Positions 30,301 to 47,971 of a stretch of DNA of 64,000 nt are shown here, piece by piece. Source of the DNA: a virus. How positions within the stretch are numbered: position 1 is the stretch's first letter; each line of letters opens with the position of its first letter. Both the position numbers and the translations under genes were made by a program. The notes beneath the pieces were generated by a model that saw only the letters and a list, made by a program, of their open reading frames with translations, ran no database searches and was not told the DNA's origin. The stretch spans positions 1 to 64,000 of the IMG/VR virus record IMGVR_UViG_3300025674_000021; one strand, given 5' to 3'.

Positions 30301-30705
30301 ATGCAAGATTTTAATGAAGATGACATGTCCATTGACGTGAATGTAACAGAAGCATCAATTGTCAAGAAGGAAGAAAAGCAGAAACCTGATGACATCACAA
30401 AAGATTATGAGTATACCCGTGCAAATTTATATTCATTGATTGAAAAAGGTCAGGAAGCAATCAACGGTATCATGGAACTTGCTGGAGAAGGTGGCAGTCC
30501 AAGAGCATATGAAGTTGCGGGACAATTAATTAAGAACGTTGCAGACACGACAGATAAATTGATTGATCTTCAGAAGAAACTGAAAGAAGTTGAAGAAGAA
30601 TCCAATAAAACTACTAATGTTACTAATAATGCTTTCATATTTGAAGGTCCTACAAATCAACTCTCCAAGTTACTAAAAGAAGGTTTTCTAAATAATAAAG
30701 AGTAA
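30301..30705 (+). CDS. gp16: Terminase small subunit gp16
   Basis: DYEYTRANLY, PRAYEVAGQLIK, TNN motif. Confidence 0.9.
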   Translation: MQDFNEDDMSIDVNVTEASIVKKEEKQKPDDITKDYEYTRANLYSLIEKGQEAINGIMELAGEGGSPRAYEVAGQLIKNVADTTDKLIDLQKKLKEVEEESNKTTNVTNNAFIFEGPTNQLSKLLKEGFLNNKE

Positions 30706-30718
30706 TCTCTCATTACTA

Positions 30719-32554
30719 ATGGGTTGGTCTAGTAAATATAAAAAATCAATTGATTGTAAGAACCCAAAAGGTTTTTCTCAAAAAGCACACTGCCAAGGCA
30801 AAAAGAAAATGAATGAGCAAATGACTCAGCAAAATAAAGCTGAATACATGGCGCAACGGTTACTTAATAAGGCGAGAGGTGTTGCCGCCAAATATGATGC
30901 TGCCAAAAAAGCGGCAAAAGATGTGAAAACAACATCTGGTAGTGTAACCATTCCCGAAGAAACTTGTCCTGTTTGTGCATTTGACCCTTGCCAATGCCTT
31001 GAAAGTACTATTACTGAAAAACGTGATGGCAAATCTTCCAAAGATCCTGGATATTCTCTTCGTGACTGGTTCAAAGGTGGTGGATGGGTTCAGGCTGGTG
31101 GTAAGTATGATGGAAAACCTTGTGCTAAACAACCAGGACAAAAAACTAAACCTTTCTGTCGTGATGCAGACGATCGTGCTGCAATGAGTAAGATTGAAAG
31201 AAACAAAAGAGCTGCTAAAAAACGCAAAGAAGATCCAAATCCTGATAGGAAAGGGAAGGCAAAGAACGTGAAACAAGAATCTTTTTCAAACTGGAGAGCA
31301 GACTTAGAGCAACTTGATGAAATGGGTCTTGCCAATGCAATTAGAGTTGGTGGGGCAGTAGGTGCGGCTATTGGTGGAGGAGTTTTAGTTAATAAAGCAA
31401 AAGAATCGGCGCAGAGATTGAGAAATGCTGCCGATAAGCGTATGGGCAAACCACCAACCTATCAAAAGAACTCATATCAACCAGAAGGTGAAAATATTCA
31501 AGAATTTGGTGGTTTGATAGATAGGGTGAAATCTGCTGGTAGAAAAGTAGCAGTCAAAACCGGCGAAAGAGTTGGTGAAAGAATAGGAAAAGAAAAGGCA
31601 GGTCCTATTGGTGGAATGATTGGTAAGGGAAGAGGTGGTAAAACTGGTGGAAAAGCTTACGATCAAGCTACCAGTGGAAACGTTGGTGGTGCAGTAAACA
31701 CTATTCGTGATGCACTGTCCAATTCATATGAACCAGAAGGTGGACTGGTTGATGAAGGCAAGAAAGACGCTTGCTATCATAAGGTTAAGTCGCGTTATTC
31801 TGTTTGGCCAAGTGCATATGCATCTGGTGCTTTAGTGAAGTGTCGTAAGAAAGGTGCTGCTAATTGGGGAAACAGCAAGAAAACTAGAAAAGAATCATTT
31901 GAATTTTCTAATTGGAGAGATGACTTTCAACCAACTGAATATGAATTTATTGACATTATTAAAACAACACCTATGAAAGGTCTTGCTGAAGCAAAGACAA
32001 AAGATCATGAGCATCAGATGGCAAGATCTGAAATCTCTAAAATTGTCTCTGCAGCAGGAAGATTAAAGAAAAAGGTAAAAGGTGAAGGGAACCTGAAGGC
32101 ATGGGTTCAATCAAAGATCACTAGAGCAGCAGATTATATTGATACTGCAGCAGATTATATGGATGGTCATGAGGGAAGTGATACTCATGAATCTGTAAAC
32201 GAAAAGTGTTGGGATGGATATGTTCAGAAGGGATTGAAGAAAAAAGGGAAGAGAATGGTTCCCAACTGCGTAAAAGAGTTTTCTGACTGGAGATCTGATA
32301 TTGAGGAAGGTGCTGCTTGGACTAGAAAAGAAGGAAAAAACAAATCAGGTGGATTGAATGAAAAAGGACGTAAGTCCTATGAGCGTGAGAATCATGGTTC
32401 AGACCTTAAAGCACCAAGTAAGAAGGTTGGAAATCCTCGCCGCAAATCATTCTGTGCAAGAATGAAAGGGATGAAAGCAAAACTTACTTCGAAAAAAACT
32501 GCTAGCGATCCAGATAGCAGAATTAACAAATCACTCAGAGCTTGGAACTGCTGA
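30719..32554 (+). CDS. Modular basic protein; putative capsid-internal polyprotein
   Basis: Basic modules separated by repeated acidic linkers (FS[ND]WRxD x3, NSY[QE]PEG x2) ending in [ILVM]xE; TAAATA at 30688. Confidence 0.75.
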   Translation: MGWSSKYKKSIDCKNPKGFSQKAHCQGKKKMNEQMTQQNKAEYMAQRLLNKARGVAAKYDAAKKAAKDVKTTSGSVTIPEETCPVCAFDPCQCLESTITEKRDGKSSKDPGYSLRDWFKGGGWVQAGGKYDGKPCAKQPGQKTKPFCRDADDRAAMSKIERNKRAAKKRKEDPNPDRKGKAKNVKQESFSNWRADLEQLDEMGLANAIRVGGAVGAAIGGGVLVNKAKESAQRLRNAADKRMGKPPTYQKNSYQPEGENIQEFGGLIDRVKSAGRKVAVKTGERVGERIGKEKAGPIGGMIGKGRGGKTGGKAYDQATSGNVGGAVNTIRDALSNSYEPEGGLVDEGKKDACYHKVKSRYSVWPSAYASGALVKCRKKGAANWGNSKKTRKESFEFSNWRDDFQPTEYEFIDIIKTTPMKGLAEAKTKDHEHQMARSEISKIVSAAGRLKKKVKGEGNLKAWVQSKITRAADYIDTAADYMDGHEGSDTHESVNEKCWDGYVQKGLKKKGKRMVPNCVKEFSDWRSDIEEGAAWTRKEGKNKSGGLNEKGRKSYERENHGSDLKAPSKKVGNPRRKSFCARMKGMKAKLTSKKTASDPDSRINKSLRAWNC

Positions 32555-32556
32555 TC

Positions 32557-32880
32557 ATGTCAAAAAACAATCAAATAACAGAAAACGTTAGTATTCAAGG
32601 TGACTTCAATGGAACTTTGAATATTAATTCTCCGTCAGAACAACAACAAAATTTTGGTGAGGATTATACTGCTGATATAGTTTGGCAAGGAAATCTTTAT
32701 CGTATGGATATTAATAGTAAAGGTGTTCCTTCAAAACAAGATCTTGGAGAACAACTTCAAGGTGATTATCCAGGTGCGATAGTACATAATATTTACCCAT
32801 CAAATACAATCAATAACAATACTATGAGAATTACTGGAATCAAAAGATATCAACCAGAGAGATTGACTTGGGGAGAATGA
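32557..32880 (+). CDS. Hypothetical protein (start probably ATG 32557)
   Basis: YTADIVWQGNLYRM...YPGAIVHNIYP. Confidence 0.7.
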   Translation: MSKNNQITENVSIQGDFNGTLNINSPSEQQQNFGEDYTADIVWQGNLYRMDINSKGVPSKQDLGEQLQGDYPGAIVHNIYPSNTINNNTMRITGIKRYQPERLTWGE

Positions 32881-34249: not shown

Positions 34250-35938
34250 ATGAGTGACAACGTTTATCTTGGTAATCCCAATCTTAAGAAAGCTAATACC
34301 CCTATTCAATTTACAGAAGAAAATGTAATTGAATATCTTAAGTGTAGAGATAATCCAATTTATTTTGCAAAAAACTATGTTCAGATTGTATCTCTCGATA
34401 AGGGTCTAGTCCCTTTTGAGATGTACCCTTTTCAGGAAAAATTAATTCAAAATTTCCATGATAATAGGTTTAATATCTGTAAGATGCCACGTCAAACTGG
34501 TAAATCTACAACTTGTGTTTCATATCTGCTGCATTACCTTATTTTTAACGACAATGTTAACATCGGGATTCTAGCAAACAAAGCACCAACTGCGAGAGAG
34601 ATTCTTGGTAGGTTACAACTTGCTTACGAAAACTTGCCAAGATGGATGCAGCAGGGTATCATATCATGGAATAAAGGATCGGTTGAATTAGAAAATGGCA
34701 GTAAAATATTGGCATCTTCTACGTCTGCAAGTGCTGTCAGAGGTATGTCGTTTAACATCCTCTTTCTCGACGAGTTCGCGTTCGTCCCAAATCACATTGC
34801 TGACTCGTTCTTTGCATCTGTTTATCCTACTATTACGTCTGGTAAATCAACCAAAGTAATTATTGTCTCAACGCCACACGGTATGAATCATTTCTACCGT
34901 ATGTGGCACGATGCGGAAAGAGAGAAGAACGAATACGTACCAACAGAAGTTCATTGGTCAGAAGTTCCTGGAAGAGACCTTGAATGGAAGGAACAAACGA
35001 TTGCAAACACTTCTGAACAGCAGTTCAAAGTTGAGTTTGAATGCGAATTCTTAGGATCGATCAATACTCTGATCAATCCAGCAAAATTAAAAAACCTTGT
35101 ATACGAAGACCCTATAAAGAGAAACAAAGGTCTAGACATATATGAAGGTCCAAAAGAAGATCACGAATATCTAATTACAGTTGACGTTGCTCGGGGTATG
35201 GGCAATGACTATTCAGCATTCATTATATTTGATATAACGCAGTTCCCGTATAGAGTTGTAGGTAAATATAGGAATAATGAAATCAAACCGATGCTGTTTC
35301 CAAGCATCATTGAGGATGTTGCAAAGGGATATAATCAGGCATGGTTATTGATTGAAGTCAATGATATTGGTGATCAAGTTGCCAGTATTATGCACTTTGA
35401 TCTTGAATACGACAATGTATTGATGTGTGCAATGAGAGGTCGTGCAGGTCAAGTTGTAGGTACAGGATTTAGTGGTAAGAAGTCCCAACTTGGTGTCAGA
35501 ATGACATCTGCAGTTAAGAAGTTGGGATGTTCAAACCTGAAAACTTTGCTGGAAGACGATAAGCTTCTTACAGTTGACTACGATATTATTGCAGAACTTA
35601 CAACATTCTCACAAAAACACAATTCTTTCGAAGCAGAAGACGGTTGTAATGATGACCTTGCAATGTGTCTTGTCATCTTTTCTTGGTTAGTTGCTCAGGA
35701 TTACTTCAGAGAAATGACGGACAATGATGTCCGAAAGAGAATTTACGAAGAGCAGAAAAATCAGATAGAACAAGACATGGCACCTTTTGGTTTTGTTCTT
35801 GATGGAATAGATGACGAAGGAACATTTGTAGAGAAAGAAACTGGTGATGTATGGGTTTCGTCAGGAAAAGAGAACCCTTTAGACACCTGGAATGTAGATG
35901 AATATGGTGATAGATCATACATGTGGGACTATAGGTGA
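34250..35938 (+). CDS. gp17: Terminase large subunit gp17
   Basis: YLGNPNLK, Walker A PRQTGKS, LDEFAF, STPHGMNHFY, DDLAMCL. Confidence 0.97.
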   Translation: MSDNVYLGNPNLKKANTPIQFTEENVIEYLKCRDNPIYFAKNYVQIVSLDKGLVPFEMYPFQEKLIQNFHDNRFNICKMPRQTGKSTTCVSYLLHYLIFNDNVNIGILANKAPTAREILGRLQLAYENLPRWMQQGIISWNKGSVELENGSKILASSTSASAVRGMSFNILFLDEFAFVPNHIADSFFASVYPTITSGKSTKVIIVSTPHGMNHFYRMWHDAEREKNEYVPTEVHWSEVPGRDLEWKEQTIANTSEQQFKVEFECEFLGSINTLINPAKLKNLVYEDPIKRNKGLDIYEGPKEDHEYLITVDVARGMGNDYSAFIIFDITQFPYRVVGKYRNNEIKPMLFPSIIEDVAKGYNQAWLLIEVNDIGDQVASIMHFDLEYDNVLMCAMRGRAGQVVGTGFSGKKSQLGVRMTSAVKKLGCSNLKTLLEDDKLLTVDYDIIAELTTFSQKHNSFEAEDGCNDDLAMCLVIFSWLVAQDYFREMTDNDVRKRIYEEQKNQIEQDMAPFGFVLDGIDDEGTFVEKETGDVWVSSGKENPLDTWNVDEYGDRSYMWDYR

Positions 35939-40935: not shown

Positions 40936-41586
40936 ATGAAACTCATAACAGAAGAAGTATCTAACGTAAAAATTATTACCGAAGGTAAAGGTAGCGGTAA
41001 AAAGATGTACATTGAAGGTGTATTCCTTCAAGGCGACATCAAAAACCGTAACGGAAGAATGTATCCAATGGATACTCTTTCGAAAGAAGTAAATCGCTAT
41101 TGCGAAACTTTCGTTAATAAGGGTCGTGCTCTTGGTGAGTTGGGACATCCTGATGGACCAACTGTAAATCTTGACCGTGTGTCCCACAAGATTACTTCTT
41201 TGGTTAGAGAAGGTTCTAATTTTAAAGGTAAAGCACAACTTCTAAATACACCGATGGGCAAAATTGCTTCATCACTTATTGGTGAGGGAGTTATGCTTGG
41301 TGTTTCTTCCCGTGGTGTTGGTTCACTTAAGACCACTAGCGAAGGACACAAAATCGTTGGCGAAGATTTCATGCTAGCAACTGCTGCTGATATCGTTGCC
41401 GATCCTTCTGCACCTGATGCGTTTGTTCAGGGAATTATGGAAGGAAAGGAGTGGATTTGGGATGGAGGAATCCTTCGTGAACAACTCGCTGAGCGTACAG
41501 AAAGAAGAATTAATACTCTTGTTGCACAGAGAGCACTTGAAGAGCATAAGCTAAATCTATTCCAAGATTTCCTCTCAAATCTCTAA
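40936..41586 (+). CDS. gp21: Prohead core protease gp21
   Basis: MKLITE, KNRNGRMYP, ALGELGHP, GVSSRGVGS, DIVADPSAPDAFV. Confidence 0.96.
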   Translation: MKLITEEVSNVKIITEGKGSGKKMYIEGVFLQGDIKNRNGRMYPMDTLSKEVNRYCETFVNKGRALGELGHPDGPTVNLDRVSHKITSLVREGSNFKGKAQLLNTPMGKIASSLIGEGVMLGVSSRGVGSLKTTSEGHKIVGEDFMLATAADIVADPSAPDAFVQGIMEGKEWIWDGGILREQLAERTERRINTLVAQRALEEHKLNLFQDFLSNL

Positions 41587-41629: not shown

Positions 41630-42772
41630 ATGTCCGTTGGTAGCAATTTACAAGAAATGGAAAACGTAGTAACCAAAGGGGCAGCTGCTGCCGATCCAAT
41701 GCCAAGTTCTGGTTCTAATGCATCTGGAGTCATGGCTCCTGGTCAAACCGGTAACTGGGAAGATCTCGGCGGTCCTACTCCTGAAAATTATCGTCCAGAC
41801 GACGAGTCCGCAACACTTAAGACCCCAGGTTCAACATTGTCTCAAGTAAGAGACGTTGTTAATGCTAAGGCAAAACCTGCTGATCCTATGCCTAAGGGTA
41901 TGAAGGAAGAGGAAGAGGTAGAAGGTGAAGTCGTGGCAGAAGAGGATGCAGTTAGTGAAGAAGAAACTACCACGGAAGTTGTAGCAGAAGAAGAAGAAGT
42001 CGAAACTGAAACCGAAGAAGTAATTGAGTATGATGTCGAAGAAGACATCAATGCTCTGATTGCAGGCGAAGAACTCTCTGAGGAATTCGAAGAGAGAGCA
42101 CGTACTATCTTTGAAACTGCAATTAACGCTAAGGTTGCTGAGATCAAAGAAGAACTCGTAGCATCCTACGAAGCATCCCTCGTAGAGGAAGTTTCTTCAA
42201 TTAAAACCGAACTCACTGATCGTGTCGATGCATACCTTGAGTATGTTGCAGACGAGTGGATTTCTGAGAATTCAATCGCTGTAGAGCACGGTCTTAAGAC
42301 CGAAATGACTGAATCATTCCTCTCCGGAATGAAGTCACTTTTTGAAGAACATTATGTAACCGTTCCTGAAGATAAGTATGATGTAATCGAGAGTATGGTA
42401 GATAAACTTGATGAAATGGAAGGAAAACTCAACGAGCAGATCGAACGTAATGTCGCTCTGAATCGTAGATTAGCAGAGTCAGTTGCTGATGTAATTTTTG
42501 CAGATGTCGCTGAGGGATTAGCAATTTCTCAGAAAGACAAACTCGCTTCTCTTGCTGAAAATGTTGAGTTTGATAGTGAAGAGAGCTATCGTGAGAAACT
42601 GGTAACACTGAGAGAATCATATTTCCCAGTTAATACCGGTGCTCAGAAAGAGGATTCTGAGAATCTGTCTGAAGAAGTAACTTTGACCGAAGAGACCGAA
42701 ATGATCTCTGAGGGAGCAACAAACGCAATGGATGCTTATCTTCAGGTACTTCGCAGATCCGCGAACAAGTGA
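41630..42772 (+). CDS. gp22: Prohead core scaffold protein gp22
   Basis: Glu-rich; LSEEFEERARTIFETA, VDAYLEYVADEW; between gp21 and gp23. Confidence 0.93.
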   Translation: MSVGSNLQEMENVVTKGAAAADPMPSSGSNASGVMAPGQTGNWEDLGGPTPENYRPDDESATLKTPGSTLSQVRDVVNAKAKPADPMPKGMKEEEEVEGEVVAEEDAVSEEETTTEVVAEEEEVETETEEVIEYDVEEDINALIAGEELSEEFEERARTIFETAINAKVAEIKEELVASYEASLVEEVSSIKTELTDRVDAYLEYVADEWISENSIAVEHGLKTEMTESFLSGMKSLFEEHYVTVPEDKYDVIESMVDKLDEMEGKLNEQIERNVALNRRLAESVADVIFADVAEGLAISQKDKLASLAENVEFDSEESYREKLVTLRESYFPVNTGAQKEDSENLSEEVTLTEETEMISEGATNAMDAYLQVLRRSANK

Positions 42773-42826: not shown

Positions 42827-44242
42827 ATGCAGATGTACAACACCGAATATCTGCAGGAGAAGTGGTCACCAATCCTCGATTACGAGGGTATGGATCCTAT
42901 CAAAGATTCACATCGTAGAGCGGTAACTGCTATCCTGCTGGAAAACCAAGAAAAAGAATTACGCGAGGAAAGAGCATTCCTTAGCGAGAATGGCCCAACC
43001 AACTCCGCAGGAACAGGCGGATTCTCTGGTTCAGGCGCAAACACAACAGGAACCCCTGTTGCAGGTTTCGATCCCGTACTGATCTCCCTGATCCGTCGTT
43101 CGATGCCTAACCTGGTCGCTTATGACCTCTGTGGCGTTCAGCCAATGAACGGTCCTACCGGACTGATCTTTGCAATGCGCTCCCGCTACAACAACCAGAC
43201 CGGTGCAGAGACCTTCTACAACGAAGTCGATTCCGCATTCTCTGGTCAGGCAAAAGGACTCGCATACGAAGACGGCTTCACCGATGGTGCAGTTGGTCTG
43301 GGTACAACCGCACAAGGCGGAAGCAACCCATCAATCCTTGATCCTTCTAACCAAGCAAATAACGCAGGTCCTGGTGCTAACCAGTACAACGCTGGCGGCG
43401 GCATGACCACCGGCAAAGCAGAAGCACTCCGTGGCGACGACGCTGATGCTTTCAACGAGATGGCATTCTCGATTGAGAAACTGACCGCAACTGCTAAGTC
43501 AAGAGCACTGAAAGCAGAATACTCCCTGGAACTGGCACAAGACCTCAGAGCAATCCACGGTCTGAATGCTGAAGCAGAACTCGCAAACATCCTCAGCACT
43601 GAGATTCTTGCTGAGATCAACCGCGAGATCATCCGTACCATCTACAAGGTCGCAGTTCCTGGCGCACAGGTCAACACCGCAACCCCTGGAACCTTCGACC
43701 TCGACGTTGACTCCAACGGCAGATGGTCTGTTGAGAAGTTCAAGGGTCTGATCTTCCAGATCGAAAGAGATGCTAACGCAATCGCGCAGCAAACTCGTAG
43801 AGGGAAGGGCAACATGATCCTCTGCTCCGCAGACGTTGCTTCCGCACTCACCATGGCAGGCGTTCTGGATTACACCCCTGCACTCAACGCTAACCTCCAG
43901 GTTGACGACACCGGTAACACCTTCGCTGGTGTTCTGCAAGGTAAGTATCGTGTATACATCGATCCTTATTCTGCAAACGTTTCTGGTAACCAGTTCTATG
44001 TTGCTGGTTATAAGGGAACCAACCCTTATGACGCAGGTCTCTTCTACTGCCCATACGTTCCTCTCCAGATGGTTCGTGCAGTTGGCGAGAACACCTTCCA
44101 GCCTAAGATTGGCTTTAAGACCCGCTATGCGGTCGTCGCAAACCCATTCGCAAAAGGCGCTACCGAAGCATCTGCTCCAGACAACATCGCAACCAACTCC
44201 AACGTATACTACAGAAGAGTCAAAGTCCAAAATCTTATGTGA
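42827..44242 (+). CDS. gp23: Major capsid protein gp23
   Basis: LIRRSMPNLVAYDLCGVQPMNGPTGLIFAMR, FQPKIGFKTRY; predicted gp21 cleavage after FLSE. Confidence 0.98.
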   Translation: MQMYNTEYLQEKWSPILDYEGMDPIKDSHRRAVTAILLENQEKELREERAFLSENGPTNSAGTGGFSGSGANTTGTPVAGFDPVLISLIRRSMPNLVAYDLCGVQPMNGPTGLIFAMRSRYNNQTGAETFYNEVDSAFSGQAKGLAYEDGFTDGAVGLGTTAQGGSNPSILDPSNQANNAGPGANQYNAGGGMTTGKAEALRGDDADAFNEMAFSIEKLTATAKSRALKAEYSLELAQDLRAIHGLNAEAELANILSTEILAEINREIIRTIYKVAVPGAQVNTATPGTFDLDVDSNGRWSVEKFKGLIFQIERDANAIAQQTRRGKGNMILCSADVASALTMAGVLDYTPALNANLQVDDTGNTFAGVLQGKYRVYIDPYSANVSGNQFYVAGYKGTNPYDAGLFYCPYVPLQMVRAVGENTFQPKIGFKTRYAVVANPFAKGATEASAPDNIATNSNVYYRRVKVQNLM

Positions 44243-44313: not shown

Positions 44314-44514
44314 ATGGAAGAAAATGATTGGTCGGTTGATTGGACATTAGATGTTCATAAAGTCAGAGCACTTTATGATGTCATACACTATACCTGGGAA
44401 AATTGGCCAGGATATCCAGCAAGACCAAAAGAAGAACAGGAGTTTTTAATATCGACCAAATCTGAACTTTTTGCAATGTTAATGGATTACACTTTCAAGA
44501 CGAAAAATCAATGA
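44314..44514 (+). CDS. Hypothetical protein
   Basis: 66-aa ORF with WPGYPARPKEEQEFL; late promoter upstream. Confidence 0.7.
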   Translation: MEENDWSVDWTLDVHKVRALYDVIHYTWENWPGYPARPKEEQEFLISTKSELFAMLMDYTFKTKNQ

Positions 44515-45296
44515 GAACGTTTAAAGAATTTCAATATATTTGCGAAAGATCCCTTTCTAAGTGTGAAAAAGACAGAAAAGAAGGTATTACCAAAGGCATG
44601 AAGAAGAATGCTTCTGACTTTAAAGATCGTTATGGTGGCAATTGGAAAGGAGTTATGTACGCTACTGCCACCAAGATGGCAAAGAAATCTAAGTGTAAGA
44701 AGGATGTTAAAGAATTTTGGAATCCATTAGCAAAACCAAAAGCAAAACCTGCTGTAAAGAAAAAAAATTCTACTGTTTTAGCATATAAAAACTATAAACC
44801 AGGAGTTCTTAACAAAGATACTGGAAAATTTACTCAACGTGATCATACACCAGATGAAGCAAAGAGATATGGTTGGAAACCAGTAAAGACAAGTTCTTAT
44901 GGTCCCAGAGATACTACATCTCAGGCATATAATACTGGAAAAGATAAAGTTCAAAGAACTGCAGATGGAACTCCATTTACAGGGTCTACAAGAGGTGTAG
45001 CAGTTCCATATAAGTATAAAAAGAATGAAGTTCCTAAAGGTGTTTGGGCAGGAACACCATCAAGGAAATTTGGATCTGATGTGACATTTACAAATAAACC
45101 ACTTGGAAATGCTCCAGGAAAAACTAAAACTGTTACCACTAAAGTAAGAGATACTGGAAACTTTGGTGCTGCTGGTGAAGTTAATAAAAGTACTAGTTTT
45201 GATTTGATGAGGCAAACAGCAAGAGATTTATCTGGTAATCAAAAACTCACACCAACACAATGGGGAAAAAGAACCGTTTACGTGAGGTCTAACTAA
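44511..45296 (+). CDS. Putative capsid-targeted protein with C-terminal RlpA-like (double-psi beta-barrel) domain
   Basis: N-terminal MRTFKEFQYICE; C-terminal SSYG..TADGTPF..VAVP..FGS.V..VRDTG.F..FDL...ARDL..G...V. Confidence 0.7.
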   Translation: MRTFKEFQYICERSLSKCEKDRKEGITKGMKKNASDFKDRYGGNWKGVMYATATKMAKKSKCKKDVKEFWNPLAKPKAKPAVKKKNSTVLAYKNYKPGVLNKDTGKFTQRDHTPDEAKRYGWKPVKTSSYGPRDTTSQAYNTGKDKVQRTADGTPFTGSTRGVAVPYKYKKNEVPKGVWAGTPSRKFGSDVTFTNKPLGNAPGKTKTVTTKVRDTGNFGAAGEVNKSTSFDLMRQTARDLSGNQKLTPTQWGKRTVYVRSN

Positions 45297-46282: not shown

Positions 46283-47971
46283 ATGATTACTTTTCAGCAG
46301 TTTGATGAAAATGCTAGGGCAGCGTTAAAACTGCTGAAAGCGACTAATAGAATTGTTGGTGGGAAAAATGTTGGTTCTTTGGGAAGAGCAAGATATAAAG
46401 CTTTATCAGTAGGACCAAGCAGAAGTATAGTTGGATTAGATCGTCAAAGAAGAAATGCATCTGATGCAGCAGCATTTAGAAAAGCAAACTTCCCTAGAAC
46501 TCAAACTGGAGGTACTAGACAAAGATTTAATACGACAGGTGAAAAGAATAAGTTTAGTAGAACTGTGGCAACTTCATACCCGTCACAATCTTCATATGCA
46601 AAAGATATGGTTCCTGCAAAACAATTGGAAAGTGGTGGAAGAATTCGTTCAACATCTGAACGTTCTCAATATCTGAAAAGATTGAAAAGACAAATGGGTG
46701 GGACAAGAACACGAAGAGGAGTTCATGCTGTTGATGTTCTCCCAAGAGGGGATTTCATGAAAAATGATCCAAAACAATTAATTACTAGAGGAAAAGAATA
46801 TCATAAAGCAGTATCAGATATACCAAATGAAGTTAAAGGGTTTGGAGCAAAACGAGGAGATAAGATTGTAGGAACCGCATCGGAAGTTATGCCCGGTTCA
46901 ACAAATATAGAGAGGGGAAAACAAAATCGCAGATCATTATATCGAAGAGTTCTTGGTGCAACAAAACAAGACCCTATTACAAGAAAACAAGTTGCTACTA
47001 TTAAAGATGAGTTTGAACATCTTGATGAAAATGCAAGAGCAGCATTAAAACTACTGAAATCTGCTAATAAAATTATTGGTGGTAGAAAAGTAGGCATAGT
47101 GCAGAAAGCATTGAAATCAAATCGTGCCGTATTGTCTAGGGCAGAAAGAGGTCAGAAATTTTCGCAGTCAGCAGATAAGATTACTTCTGACACACGTTCA
47201 ATGAATATCACAAGATCAGCATCAAGAAAAGCAGGATTTAGTGGTGGTGCAAATATAAACAGAAAAGATTTTAAAACTTCAACAAAAGAATATACAACAT
47301 ATCCAGAAAAAGGTGGTTTAGATTATCATCCTCGACATAATACACAGGTTGATACAAATATCAGCACCGTTCCATCGGGTAGAGTTGCGGCAATTTCTGC
47401 AAATACTACAGCAAAAAGACCAGTTCCAAAATCTGTTGGGCGTGGAAGACGAGTACCAAGAACAGAAAAATTAGTAGGGAAATTAAAAGAATATCGTCGT
47501 AGAGTTAGGAGGACTGGAGGAAATGAGAGAAATCCAGTTCATAAGATAGATTTTATTCAAAGAAGTGATGCAGATATATGGAAGAATGATTTGGACAAAT
47601 ATGCGTTCAAACGTGCTAGAAATTTTAGAAGAGCACAAGAAAATTTACCAAAAGATTTAAAAGCAGCAGGAGCAAAACCAAAAGATATTGTTCAAGGAAT
47701 TCCCTCTGTTATGATGAGAGGAGAAACATCAAAAGGTGTTGGAAAACGTGCAGAACTTTATAAAAATCGTTATGGTCATCGCGTAACTGATTTAGATCCT
47801 ACAAGAAGGACAACTGGTGTGATTGGCAGTGCTGGAGGAGAACTTCCACCAGGAAAGAAAATGAGAGGTAGAAAACCGCAGAGAAGAAGAACAAGAACAG
47901 GTCCTACAGATCGATCTTCTGCACAGGCAATGATGGATAGAACCCAGAGAAACATTTTATCAGATCGATAA
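46283..47971 (+). CDS. Arg/Lys-rich protein made of two homologous units; putative capsid-targeted polyprotein
   Basis: [FL]DE-NARAALKLLK occurs twice (46301, 47021); AATAAATA at 46257. Confidence 0.75.
   Translation: MITFQQFDENARAALKLLKATNRIVGGKNVGSLGRARYKALSVGPSRSIVGLDRQRRNASDAAAFRKANFPRTQTGGTRQRFNTTGEKNKFSRTVATSYPSQSSYAKDMVPAKQLESGGRIRSTSERSQYLKRLKRQMGGTRTRRGVHAVDVLPRGDFMKNDPKQLITRGKEYHKAVSDIPNEVKGFGAKRGDKIVGTASEVMPGSTNIERGKQNRRSLYRRVLGATKQDPITRKQVATIKDEFEHLDENARAALKLLKSANKIIGGRKVGIVQKALKSNRAVLSRAERGQKFSQSADKITSDTRSMNITRSASRKAGFSGGANINRKDFKTSTKEYTTYPEKGGLDYHPRHNTQVDTNISTVPSGRVAAISANTTAKRPVPKSVGRGRRVPRTEKLVGKLKEYRRRVRRTGGNERNPVHKIDFIQRSDADIWKNDLDKYAFKRARNFRRAQENLPKDLKAAGAKPKDIVQGIPSVMMRGETSKGVGKRAELYKNRYGHRVTDLDPTRRTTGVIGSAGGELPPGKKMRGRKPQRRRTRTGPTDRSSAQAMMDRTQRNILSDR

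Follow-up and report, generated by a model that had tools for sequence, protein, structure and literature searches.

A mosaic gene between gp16 and gp17 of a T4-like cyanomyovirus and its predicted processing by the prohead protease

What does a long gene with a patchwork, repetitive product do between gp16 and gp17 of a T4-like cyanophage? The question is raised by the open reading frame (ORF) at 30719-32554 (+ strand) of IMG/VR record IMGVR_UViG_3300025674_000021, of which positions 1 to 64,000 (64,000 nucleotides [nt]; the window) were analyzed. The ORF encodes 611 amino acids (aa) with a pI of 9.8 and belongs to the T4-GC119/phrog_727 family. We present here its anatomy, its relatives, and its link to the prohead protease, and propose that its product is probably a prohead-targeted polyprotein, cut by gp21 into about ten peptides, and thus a polyprotein variant of the T4 internal-protein system.

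The translation has no internal stop, contains 14.7% Lys, and includes 14 Cys residues, mostly paired (13/25, 135/147, 352/375, 497/517, and 579/611), with four more at 83-93. The original prediction, made from the letters of the window, had placed the gene between gp16 and gp17 and described two families of repeated linkers separating mini-domains with Cys pairs. The linker coordinates hold exactly, and every mini-domain and Cys pair quoted there was found in the translated ORF. The A motif, F-S-[ND]-W-R-x-D-[LFI], occurs three times (FSNWRADL at 31283, FSNWRDDF at 31904, and FSDWRSDI at 32279), and the B motif, N-S-Y-[QE]-P-E-G, twice (NSYQPEG at 31469 and NSYEPEG at 31721). By residue frequencies, about 6e-7 and 1e-6 occurrences, respectively, would be expected by chance in 611 residues. 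The A copies share 17 to 19 of 24 bases and the B copies 27 of 36, with the differences at synonymous positions, so conservation acts at the protein level. On account of these synonymous differences, we also rejected the idea that the repeats arose by a recent duplication of DNA within the gene. Motifs and modules are confined to this ORF within the 101.7-kb contig.

For mapping, the protein was divided into nine modules and five joints, all on the + strand. Module 1 (30722-30808, aa 2-30; W-S-x-K-Y-K-K-S-I-D-C...H-C) holds one Cys pair and is internal in homologues, where it follows V-S-E. A helical spacer (30809-30958, aa 31-80; helix at 37-70 with a predicted local distance difference test [pLDDT] score of ~80) ends in I-P-E and leads to Module 2 (30959-31018, aa 81-100), an acidic four-Cys knuckle, C-P-V-C...C-Q-C, ending in I-T-E. 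Module 3 (31019-31273, aa 101-185), K-R-D-G-K...S-L-R-D-W-F...P-C...F-C plus a basic tail, is the best-folded island (pLDDT 75-90). Junction A1 (31274-31321, aa 186-201; F-S-N-W-R-A-D-L, then L-D-E) precedes Module 4 (31322-31468, aa 202-250), a hydrophobic Gly/Ala-rich stretch with a helix. Junction B1 (31469-31504, aa 251-262; N-S-Y-Q-P-E-G-E-N-I-Q-E) joins it to the basic, Gly-rich Module 5 (31505-31720, aa 263-334), which has low model confidence. Junction B2 (31721-31756, aa 335-346; N-S-Y-E-P-E-G-G-L-V-D-E) ends in the invariant E346 and leads to Module 6 (31757-31894, aa 347-392; K-K-D-A-C-Y-H-K-V-K...V-K-C-R-K), the most conserved module. Junction A2 (31895-31990, aa 393-424) consists of F-S-N-W-R-D-D-F, an acidic stretch, and L-A-E. 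Module 7 (31991-32203, aa 425-495), a helical hairpin with A-W-V-Q-S-K-I-T ending in V-N-E, lies elsewhere in the chain in most homologues. Module 8 (32204-32278, aa 496-520) is a beta-hairpin, K-C-W-D-G-Y...P-N-C. Junction A3 (32279-32308, aa 521-530; F-S-D-W-R-S-D-I-E-E) occupies the position that the N-terminal leader has in stand-alone DUF6321 proteins, and Module 9 (32309-32551, aa 531-611; pI 10.6), ending in W-N-C, is DUF6321 itself.

The protein did not model as a single unit, as the original prediction had anticipated. An AlphaFold model built with 94 homologues gave a predicted template modeling score (pTM) of 0.30, with confident islands at residues 101-175, 350-385, 430-485, 497-520, and 570-611 split by weak joints. 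The low-confidence segments (72-83, 93-99, 182-221, 248-347, 389-427, 484-493, and 522-546) cover the predicted cut sites. The whole model had no Foldseek match in the PDB at an E value of ≤0.001, and a separate model of DUF6321 (pLDDT 79), compared with 48,161 chains using VIA-align, matched generic helical hairpins only (best Z score, 4.7), so a fold-based function cannot be claimed. With Pfam, DUF6321 was the sole hit to single modules; Microcin V, DUF5872, PT26-6P, and zf-XS all fell below their cut-offs. DUF5872 (PF19197) scored 16.9 bits against Module 6 (cut-off, 27.5) and is found in only 14 to 17% of atlas-neighbor members. Microcin V (PF17508) scored 19 bits (cut-off, 27) over residues 280-329, the Gly-rich stretch of Module 5; a microcin or bacteriocin identity was rejected as a composition effect.

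Modules and joints were mapped on 120 homologues and, as a less biased second sample, on 61 complete same-locus genes from IMG/VR contigs. In the first set, near relatives share a loose order, yet individual modules may be lacking, repeated, or shifted: a chain has one or two copies of Module 8 and one to three of the B joint, and Module 7, which follows Module 6 in the 611-aa protein, precedes Module 3 in most relatives. The 61 same-locus genes encode 92 to 740 residues in orders that include 7-8-3-6-9, 8-1-6-7-9, and 0-3-7-6-9. DUF6321 is usually the final module and is sometimes first or internal. Module 8 appears in seven PHROG families at differing positions and DUF6321 in eight, including a 99-residue stand-alone family, and in the S-SM2 homologue, a full DUF192 domain sits between two joints. 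The expectation that module order would not be fixed is thus borne out, in order, number, and presence, and by the existence of stand-alone modules. By sequence comparison, the mosaic, beads-on-a-string nature of the protein is established. Compared with other T4-GC119 members, it has its own combination of parts, among them Modules 4 and 5 and a total of three A joints.

Two isolate loci add detail. In S-SM2 (locus L002, 2668-5219), a 142-aa ORF starts MKTLKQFLKE and has an internal K-T-F-E-E-F-R-E directly before Module 1; the next gene, encoding 708 aa, holds the DUF192 domain between two hydrophobic-x-Glu joints. The S-SKS1 orthologue (locus L001, 3785-5112) is split in the annotation into two ORFs (277 and 118 aa) with the break within Module 8, from a frameshift or a sequencing error, and the second ORF retains A-S-D-W-R-N-E-L-D-E ahead of DUF6321.

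The joints end in a common motif. Among 240 family members, [LIVM]-x-E was sought within 8 residues upstream of each conserved module core, a span in which 10.5% of random windows contain it. It was found before Module 1 in all 29 internal occurrences, before Module 2 in 15/17, before Module 6 in 70/95, before Module 8 in 101/127, and before Module 9 in 100/112; for Module 3, I-[TAI]-E always lies 11 residues upstream. Six unrelated module types therefore have the upstream motif in common. In the alignment, Glu is present at E100 in 84/84 sequences (hydrophobic P3 in 84), at E346 in 94/94 (83), at E424 in 73/77 (71), at E262 in 57/62 (55), at E201 in 49/67 (47), at E530 in 49/77 (48), and at E495 in 36/57 (36). 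E80 and E520 are weaker sites, and E287 is not conserved. The consensus of the B element is N-S-[YF]-[EQ]-P-E-G-x-hydrophobic-[VI]-[DE]-E. Wherever DUF6321 is not the final domain, it is followed by an almost identical element, [SGE]-Y-E-P-x-G...hydrophobic-x-E, which marks B as a general junction cassette ending in a cut-type site. The original prediction had envisaged roughly nine peptides released from one precursor; this count fits the nine or ten [LIVM]-x-E junctions, seven of them conserved, while release by cutting stays a prediction. Cutting at nine or ten sites would yield fragments computed at 10 to 101 residues, seven with a pI above 9.5.

The A joint resembles the capsid-targeting sequence (CTS) of T4. 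In the T4 record, ipII and ipIII start MKTYQEFIAE, and ipI starts MKTFKEFTSTTTPVSTITE (MKTFKEF...ITE). For encapsidation of IPIII, its first ten residues are enough; within the T4 leader, positions 4 and 7 are important for targeting and positions 8 and 10 for processing, and an Asp at the cut position prevents processing but leaves targeting intact (PMC9026906). Stand-alone DUF6321 proteins of 92 to 104 residues, encoded on long contigs, have leaders MKSFKDLRSDITE, MKSFKEFRDDISE, MKNYKEFKELAE, and MKKYEEFKRLAE directly before A-A-W-T, and such leaders as MKSFKEFRDDISE match both T4 IPI and the internal KEFSDWRSDIEE joint. The leader position in the 611-aa protein is occupied by V-K-E-F-S-D-W-R-S-D-I-E-E (KEFSDWRSDIEE), 8 of whose 13 residues are common to the MKSFKDLRSDITE leader. 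A leader of this kind is present in 16 of the 18 shortest complete same-locus genes; long genes start with other modules. A separate search with Module 3 found short genes starting MISFDDIKSELVE, MSMGTFEKYLQE, or MKSAKEFLELVE before K-R-D-G-K, and internal junctions KTFSDFIEE, KSFADFLAE, and DFSEFRQISE. In 355 proteins, the CTS-like pattern was counted 222 times, versus 17.8 times in shuffled copies, and it matches 1 of the 773 Met starts of the contig, that of the ORF at 44511 (MRTFKEFQYICE). In the 611-aa protein, the strict pattern is found in A3 only; in A1, a longer spacer separates the motif from L-D-E. Across 57 distinct contexts, the internal F-S-[ND]-W-R core never varies, which speaks for a current function and against a relic of fusion. 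We interpret the A joint as a putative diverged CTS of the T4 type. The parallel drawn earlier between its F-x-x-W core and the F-x-x-F of CTS-like N termini gains support from the MKSFKDLRSDITE and MKSFKEFRDDISE leaders at the KEFSDWRSDIEE position and from the MKTFKEF of T4 IPI.

The candidate processing enzyme is encoded nearby. The prohead protease gp21 of the window (40936-41586, + strand; Peptidase_S77, PF03420) shows 42% identity to its T4 counterpart across the catalytic region. In the gp23 propeptide of the window, L-S-E (42977-42985, + strand) lies within A-F-L-S-E/N, which aligns with S-F-L-T-E/A of T4 gp23, at the L-T-E maturation cut of that protein. gp21 recognizes hydrophobic-x-Glu. 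Cleavage C-terminal to Glu is documented (PMC5694885). A Peptidase_S77 search found one gene each in S-SKS1, S-SM2, S-SSM5, and S-SM1, and all four phages also have the junction motifs. The same search found none in the records of HTVC103P, P-SCSP1a, Eistla, S-RIP2, and MEP401, which are small podovirus-type genomes, or of the Microcystis myovirus LMM01. In all six of these S77-less phages, DUF6321 is a stand-alone gene of 81 to 101 residues that starts directly at the domain and has neither a tag nor a hydrophobic-x-Glu ahead of it; four of the six genes sit beside scaffold or capsid genes. Tag, junction motif, and protease therefore occur together.

Two further observations concern these phages. 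DUF6321 itself contains L-N-E (32354-32362, aa 546-548); G-G-L-N-E is kept in T4-like forms, and the same position reads G-G-L-N-A or G-G-L-T-A in the six phages without S77. Judged from this pattern, G-G-L-N-E may be an extra cut site inside the domain. In the marine podoviruses P-SCSP1a, Eistla, and S-RIP2, DUF6321 lies beside other tiny Lys-rich genes, one of which contains G-L-Y-A-N-I-H-A-K-R-K-R, next to the scaffold and capsid genes, and the same tiny modules appear fused, with tags, in myovirus chains. The P-SCSP1u cryo-electron microscopy paper does not mention the small DUF6321 gene.

The 611-aa protein is a direct member of the T4-GC119/phrog_727/DUF6321 proteins by locus, C-terminal domain, and modules. 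It matches phrog_727 over several modules (E value, 5e-113), and its last 81 residues are DUF6321 (PF19846 at residues 539-609; 80.5 bits; cut-off, 28.5). The S-SM2, S-SSM5, and S-SM1 homologues carry the annotation "T4-LIKE GC: 119." T4-GC119 was detected as a structural protein in purified S-SM1 virions with 13 peptide counts; the gene is present in 15 of 16 cyanophages and ranges from 276 to 2985 nt (PMC3037559, Table S8). Sullivan et al. (2010) placed it in a possible mobile cassette in the gp16-gp17 hot spot, or hyperplastic region (PMC3037559). At least 8000 near-length homologues of the 611-aa protein exist, and DUF6321 was found in 538 phage records, its proteins forming at least 2350 clusters at 50% identity. 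In DUF6321 clusters, the domain is 85 to 96% identical while protein length varies from 105 to 1228 residues, so everything around the domain is variable. Genomic context was drawn from GenBank phage records and loci in IMG/VR. Of 80 viral contigs, 75 carry the DUF6321 gene in the company of gp13-gp23 genes, typically in the gp16-gp17 interval. The literature search returned no paper on DUF6321 and, for CTS and cyanophages, nothing beyond a passing mention in a T4 review. The "structural protein" label of S-B68 could not be traced to proteomics.

Taken as a prohead polyprotein, the product would be made as a late, virion-associated precursor of about nine small, mostly basic modules, each also found alone or in other combinations in marine phages. 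The modules would be linked by short acidic junctions, all ending in hydrophobic-x-Glu, the gp21 recognition motif. The precursor would be built into the scaffolding core of the prohead, where the three internal F-S-[ND]-W-R motifs, as diverged copies of the T4 CTS, may aid incorporation. Once active, the protease would cut after E80, E100, E201, E262, E346, E424, E495, perhaps E520, and E530, leaving about ten peptides of 1 to 11 kDa, most with a pI above 9.5, in the head with the DNA. By analogy with the T4 internal proteins, these would most likely serve as Lys-rich DNA counter-ions or as co-injected early effectors.

Known systems offer partial precedents. T4 IPI, IPII, and IPIII (and Alt) are likewise small basic proteins of hypervariable genes, with a leader that has aromatics at positions 4 and 7 and then hydrophobic-x-Glu; the MKTFKEF of ipI is identical to leaders in this family, and both T4 and the cyanophage have an S77 protease and a gp22 scaffold. 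T4, however, carries one cargo per gene behind an N-terminal tag, whereas the 611-aa protein fuses about nine cargos behind an untagged N terminus, its internal tag-like motifs have the shifted consensus F-S-N-W-R-x-D-hydrophobic-x-E, no module resembles a T4 internal protein, and processing is predicted. The T4 core proteins gp22, gp67, and gp68 are precursors that gp21 cuts at several hydrophobic-x-Glu sites, and the small peptides stay in the head. Multiple sites of this kind are what is predicted for the 611-aa protein, but those proteins are acidic, mostly degraded scaffold, whereas this one is a basic mosaic of folded mini-domains, has no similarity to them, and is not a T4-like core gene. 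In phiKZ, 201phi2-1, and SPN3US, a gp21-related prohead protease cuts ejection and inner-body proteins after A/S-x-Glu, sometimes at multiple sites, and the propeptides act in targeting (PMC5694885). Those head-internal proteins are cut after Glu, as proposed here, but their propeptides exceed 100 residues, their mature products are large rather than chains of shuffled 25- to 100-residue modules, and they share no sequence similarity with the 611-aa protein.

The prohead-polyprotein explanation agrees with every computational test run. Several points weigh against it. The S-SM1 data place the homologue in virions and not specifically in the head. The N terminus of the 611-aa protein (MGWSSKYKKS) has no CTS-like leader, the motif being internal only, and many long homologues have no A motif by the pattern used, which leaves their targeting unexplained. 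The homologues are related, so the [LIVM]-x-E counts are not independent events, and flexible linkers would in any case be expected to contain Glu and hydrophobic residues. A2 (F-S-N-W-R-D-D-F-Q-P-T-E) has no adjacent canonical site, the P3 residue before E407 being Pro or Ala. P3 Val (V-D-E, V-N-E, or V-S-E) is commoner in this family than in the T4 consensus. The break of the S-SKS1 gene in Module 8 means that the intact chain is dispensable or that the record is erroneous, and in LMM01, DUF6321 sits among helicase genes and not head genes.

Some of these points would suit a modular virion protein that stays uncleaved, either a flexible, Lys-rich DNA-binding or -condensing protein or a decoration, with the junction motifs as spacers or interaction motifs. 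Cleavage is itself predicted, the protein is very basic (14.7% K), linkers are by nature acidic and flexible, and the CTS-like motif is often missing from long homologues. We consider this unlikely, though the strongest of the alternatives: it leaves unexplained why [LIVM]-x-E stands at a fixed distance upstream of six unrelated module types, why it is absent from the same modules in S77-less phages, and why stand-alone forms carry T4-like leaders with the same end motif. That the chain is processed, by gp21 or another protease, into peptides that are not head cargo is improbable. Such Cys-pair or Gly-rich peptides would act in the infected cell or outside it and might be membrane-active or bacteriocin-like, in keeping with the Gly-rich, hydrophobic character of Modules 4 and 5, the weak, sub-cut-off Microcin V hit, the capacity of the Cys pairs to form disulfides, and the location of the LMM01 gene away from head genes. 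T4 gp21, however, is active only inside proheads, and the detection of a homologue in purified virions, the late head/neck operon setting at 75 of 80 loci, the podovirus DUF6321 genes adjoining scaffold and capsid genes, and the match of the leaders to the T4 head-targeting tag all count against it. We give still less credence to the idea that the junction motifs are chiefly relics of gene fusion and module shuffling, or aids to them, with no role in the protein. Modules are indeed widely shuffled, and the gp16-gp17 interval is a known hyperplastic region with T4-GC119 in a possible mobile cassette (PMC3037559). The A and B copies, however, differ synonymously and share no long identical DNA, and the invariance of F-S-x-W-R in 57 contexts points to selection on the peptide; shuffling is in any case compatible with a prohead polyprotein and no replacement for it.

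T4-GC119 is present in nearly all sequenced cyanomyoviruses, yet it is annotated only as hypothetical or structural, and neither processing nor targeting is described in the literature searched. If the prohead-polyprotein explanation is correct, a mechanism, prohead targeting plus gp21 processing, would be assigned to an unknown gene family that ranks among the most abundant in ocean viruses, the extremely variable length of the T4-GC119 gene would be explained, and the T4 capsid-targeting tag would prove conserved from coliphages to cyanophages. The head would then hold many small peptides missed by standard tryptic proteomics and gene-based annotation, and a natural tag-and-cut system with which to load cyanophage capsids with proteins would be at hand. 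A broader proposal, which we offer tentatively and with clearly less confidence, is that marine T4-like cyanophages run a combinatorial cargo train on the head-loading tag and the prohead protease of T4, as a hypervariable polyprotein whose tagged mini-genes would be joined, rearranged, and exchanged. A single late gene would thereby deliver a changing set of about ten small basic peptides into the host with the DNA as host-takeover or anti-defense effectors, and the invariant F-S-N-W-R motifs would be multiple scaffold-core anchors.

The source genome is that of a T4-like cyanomyovirus; among isolates, Synechococcus phage S-SKS1 is closest to it, with ~80% DNA identity across part of the region. 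Upstream of the ORF lie gp13-like, gp14, and gp15 genes and the gp16 small terminase gene (30301-30705). A 107-aa ORF and a 451-aa virion structural gene separate it from gp17 (34250-35938), a detail that refines the predicted placement. Downstream of gp17 are gp18, gp19, the gp20 portal, gp21, a gp22-type scaffold (41630-42772; PF25623), and the gp23 major capsid protein.

The 107-aa ORF (32557-32880, + strand), directly 3′ of the 611-aa gene, starts MSKNNQITE; its S-SKS1 homologue starts MKNFKQFLSE, a T4 CTS-like leader. Its body (...Y-P-G-A...) resembles a module fused ahead of DUF6321 in other phages, and its homologue adjoins the DUF6321 gene in many IMG/VR loci. A very basic 562-aa ORF (46283-47971, + strand) starts MITFQQFDE followed by N-A-R-A-A-L-K-L-L, and E-F-E-H-L-D-E with N-A-R-A-A-L-K-L-L recurs at about residue 245, so that it looks like a tandem-duplicated tagged unit. 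Another ORF of the window, with a T4 CTS-like leader (44511-45296, + strand; MRTFKEFQYICE), shares homology in its first module (...M-Y-A-T-A-T-K...) with the N-terminal module of the S-SM1 T4-GC119 protein, the one detected in virions, and with a separate T4-GC110 ORF of S-SSM5.

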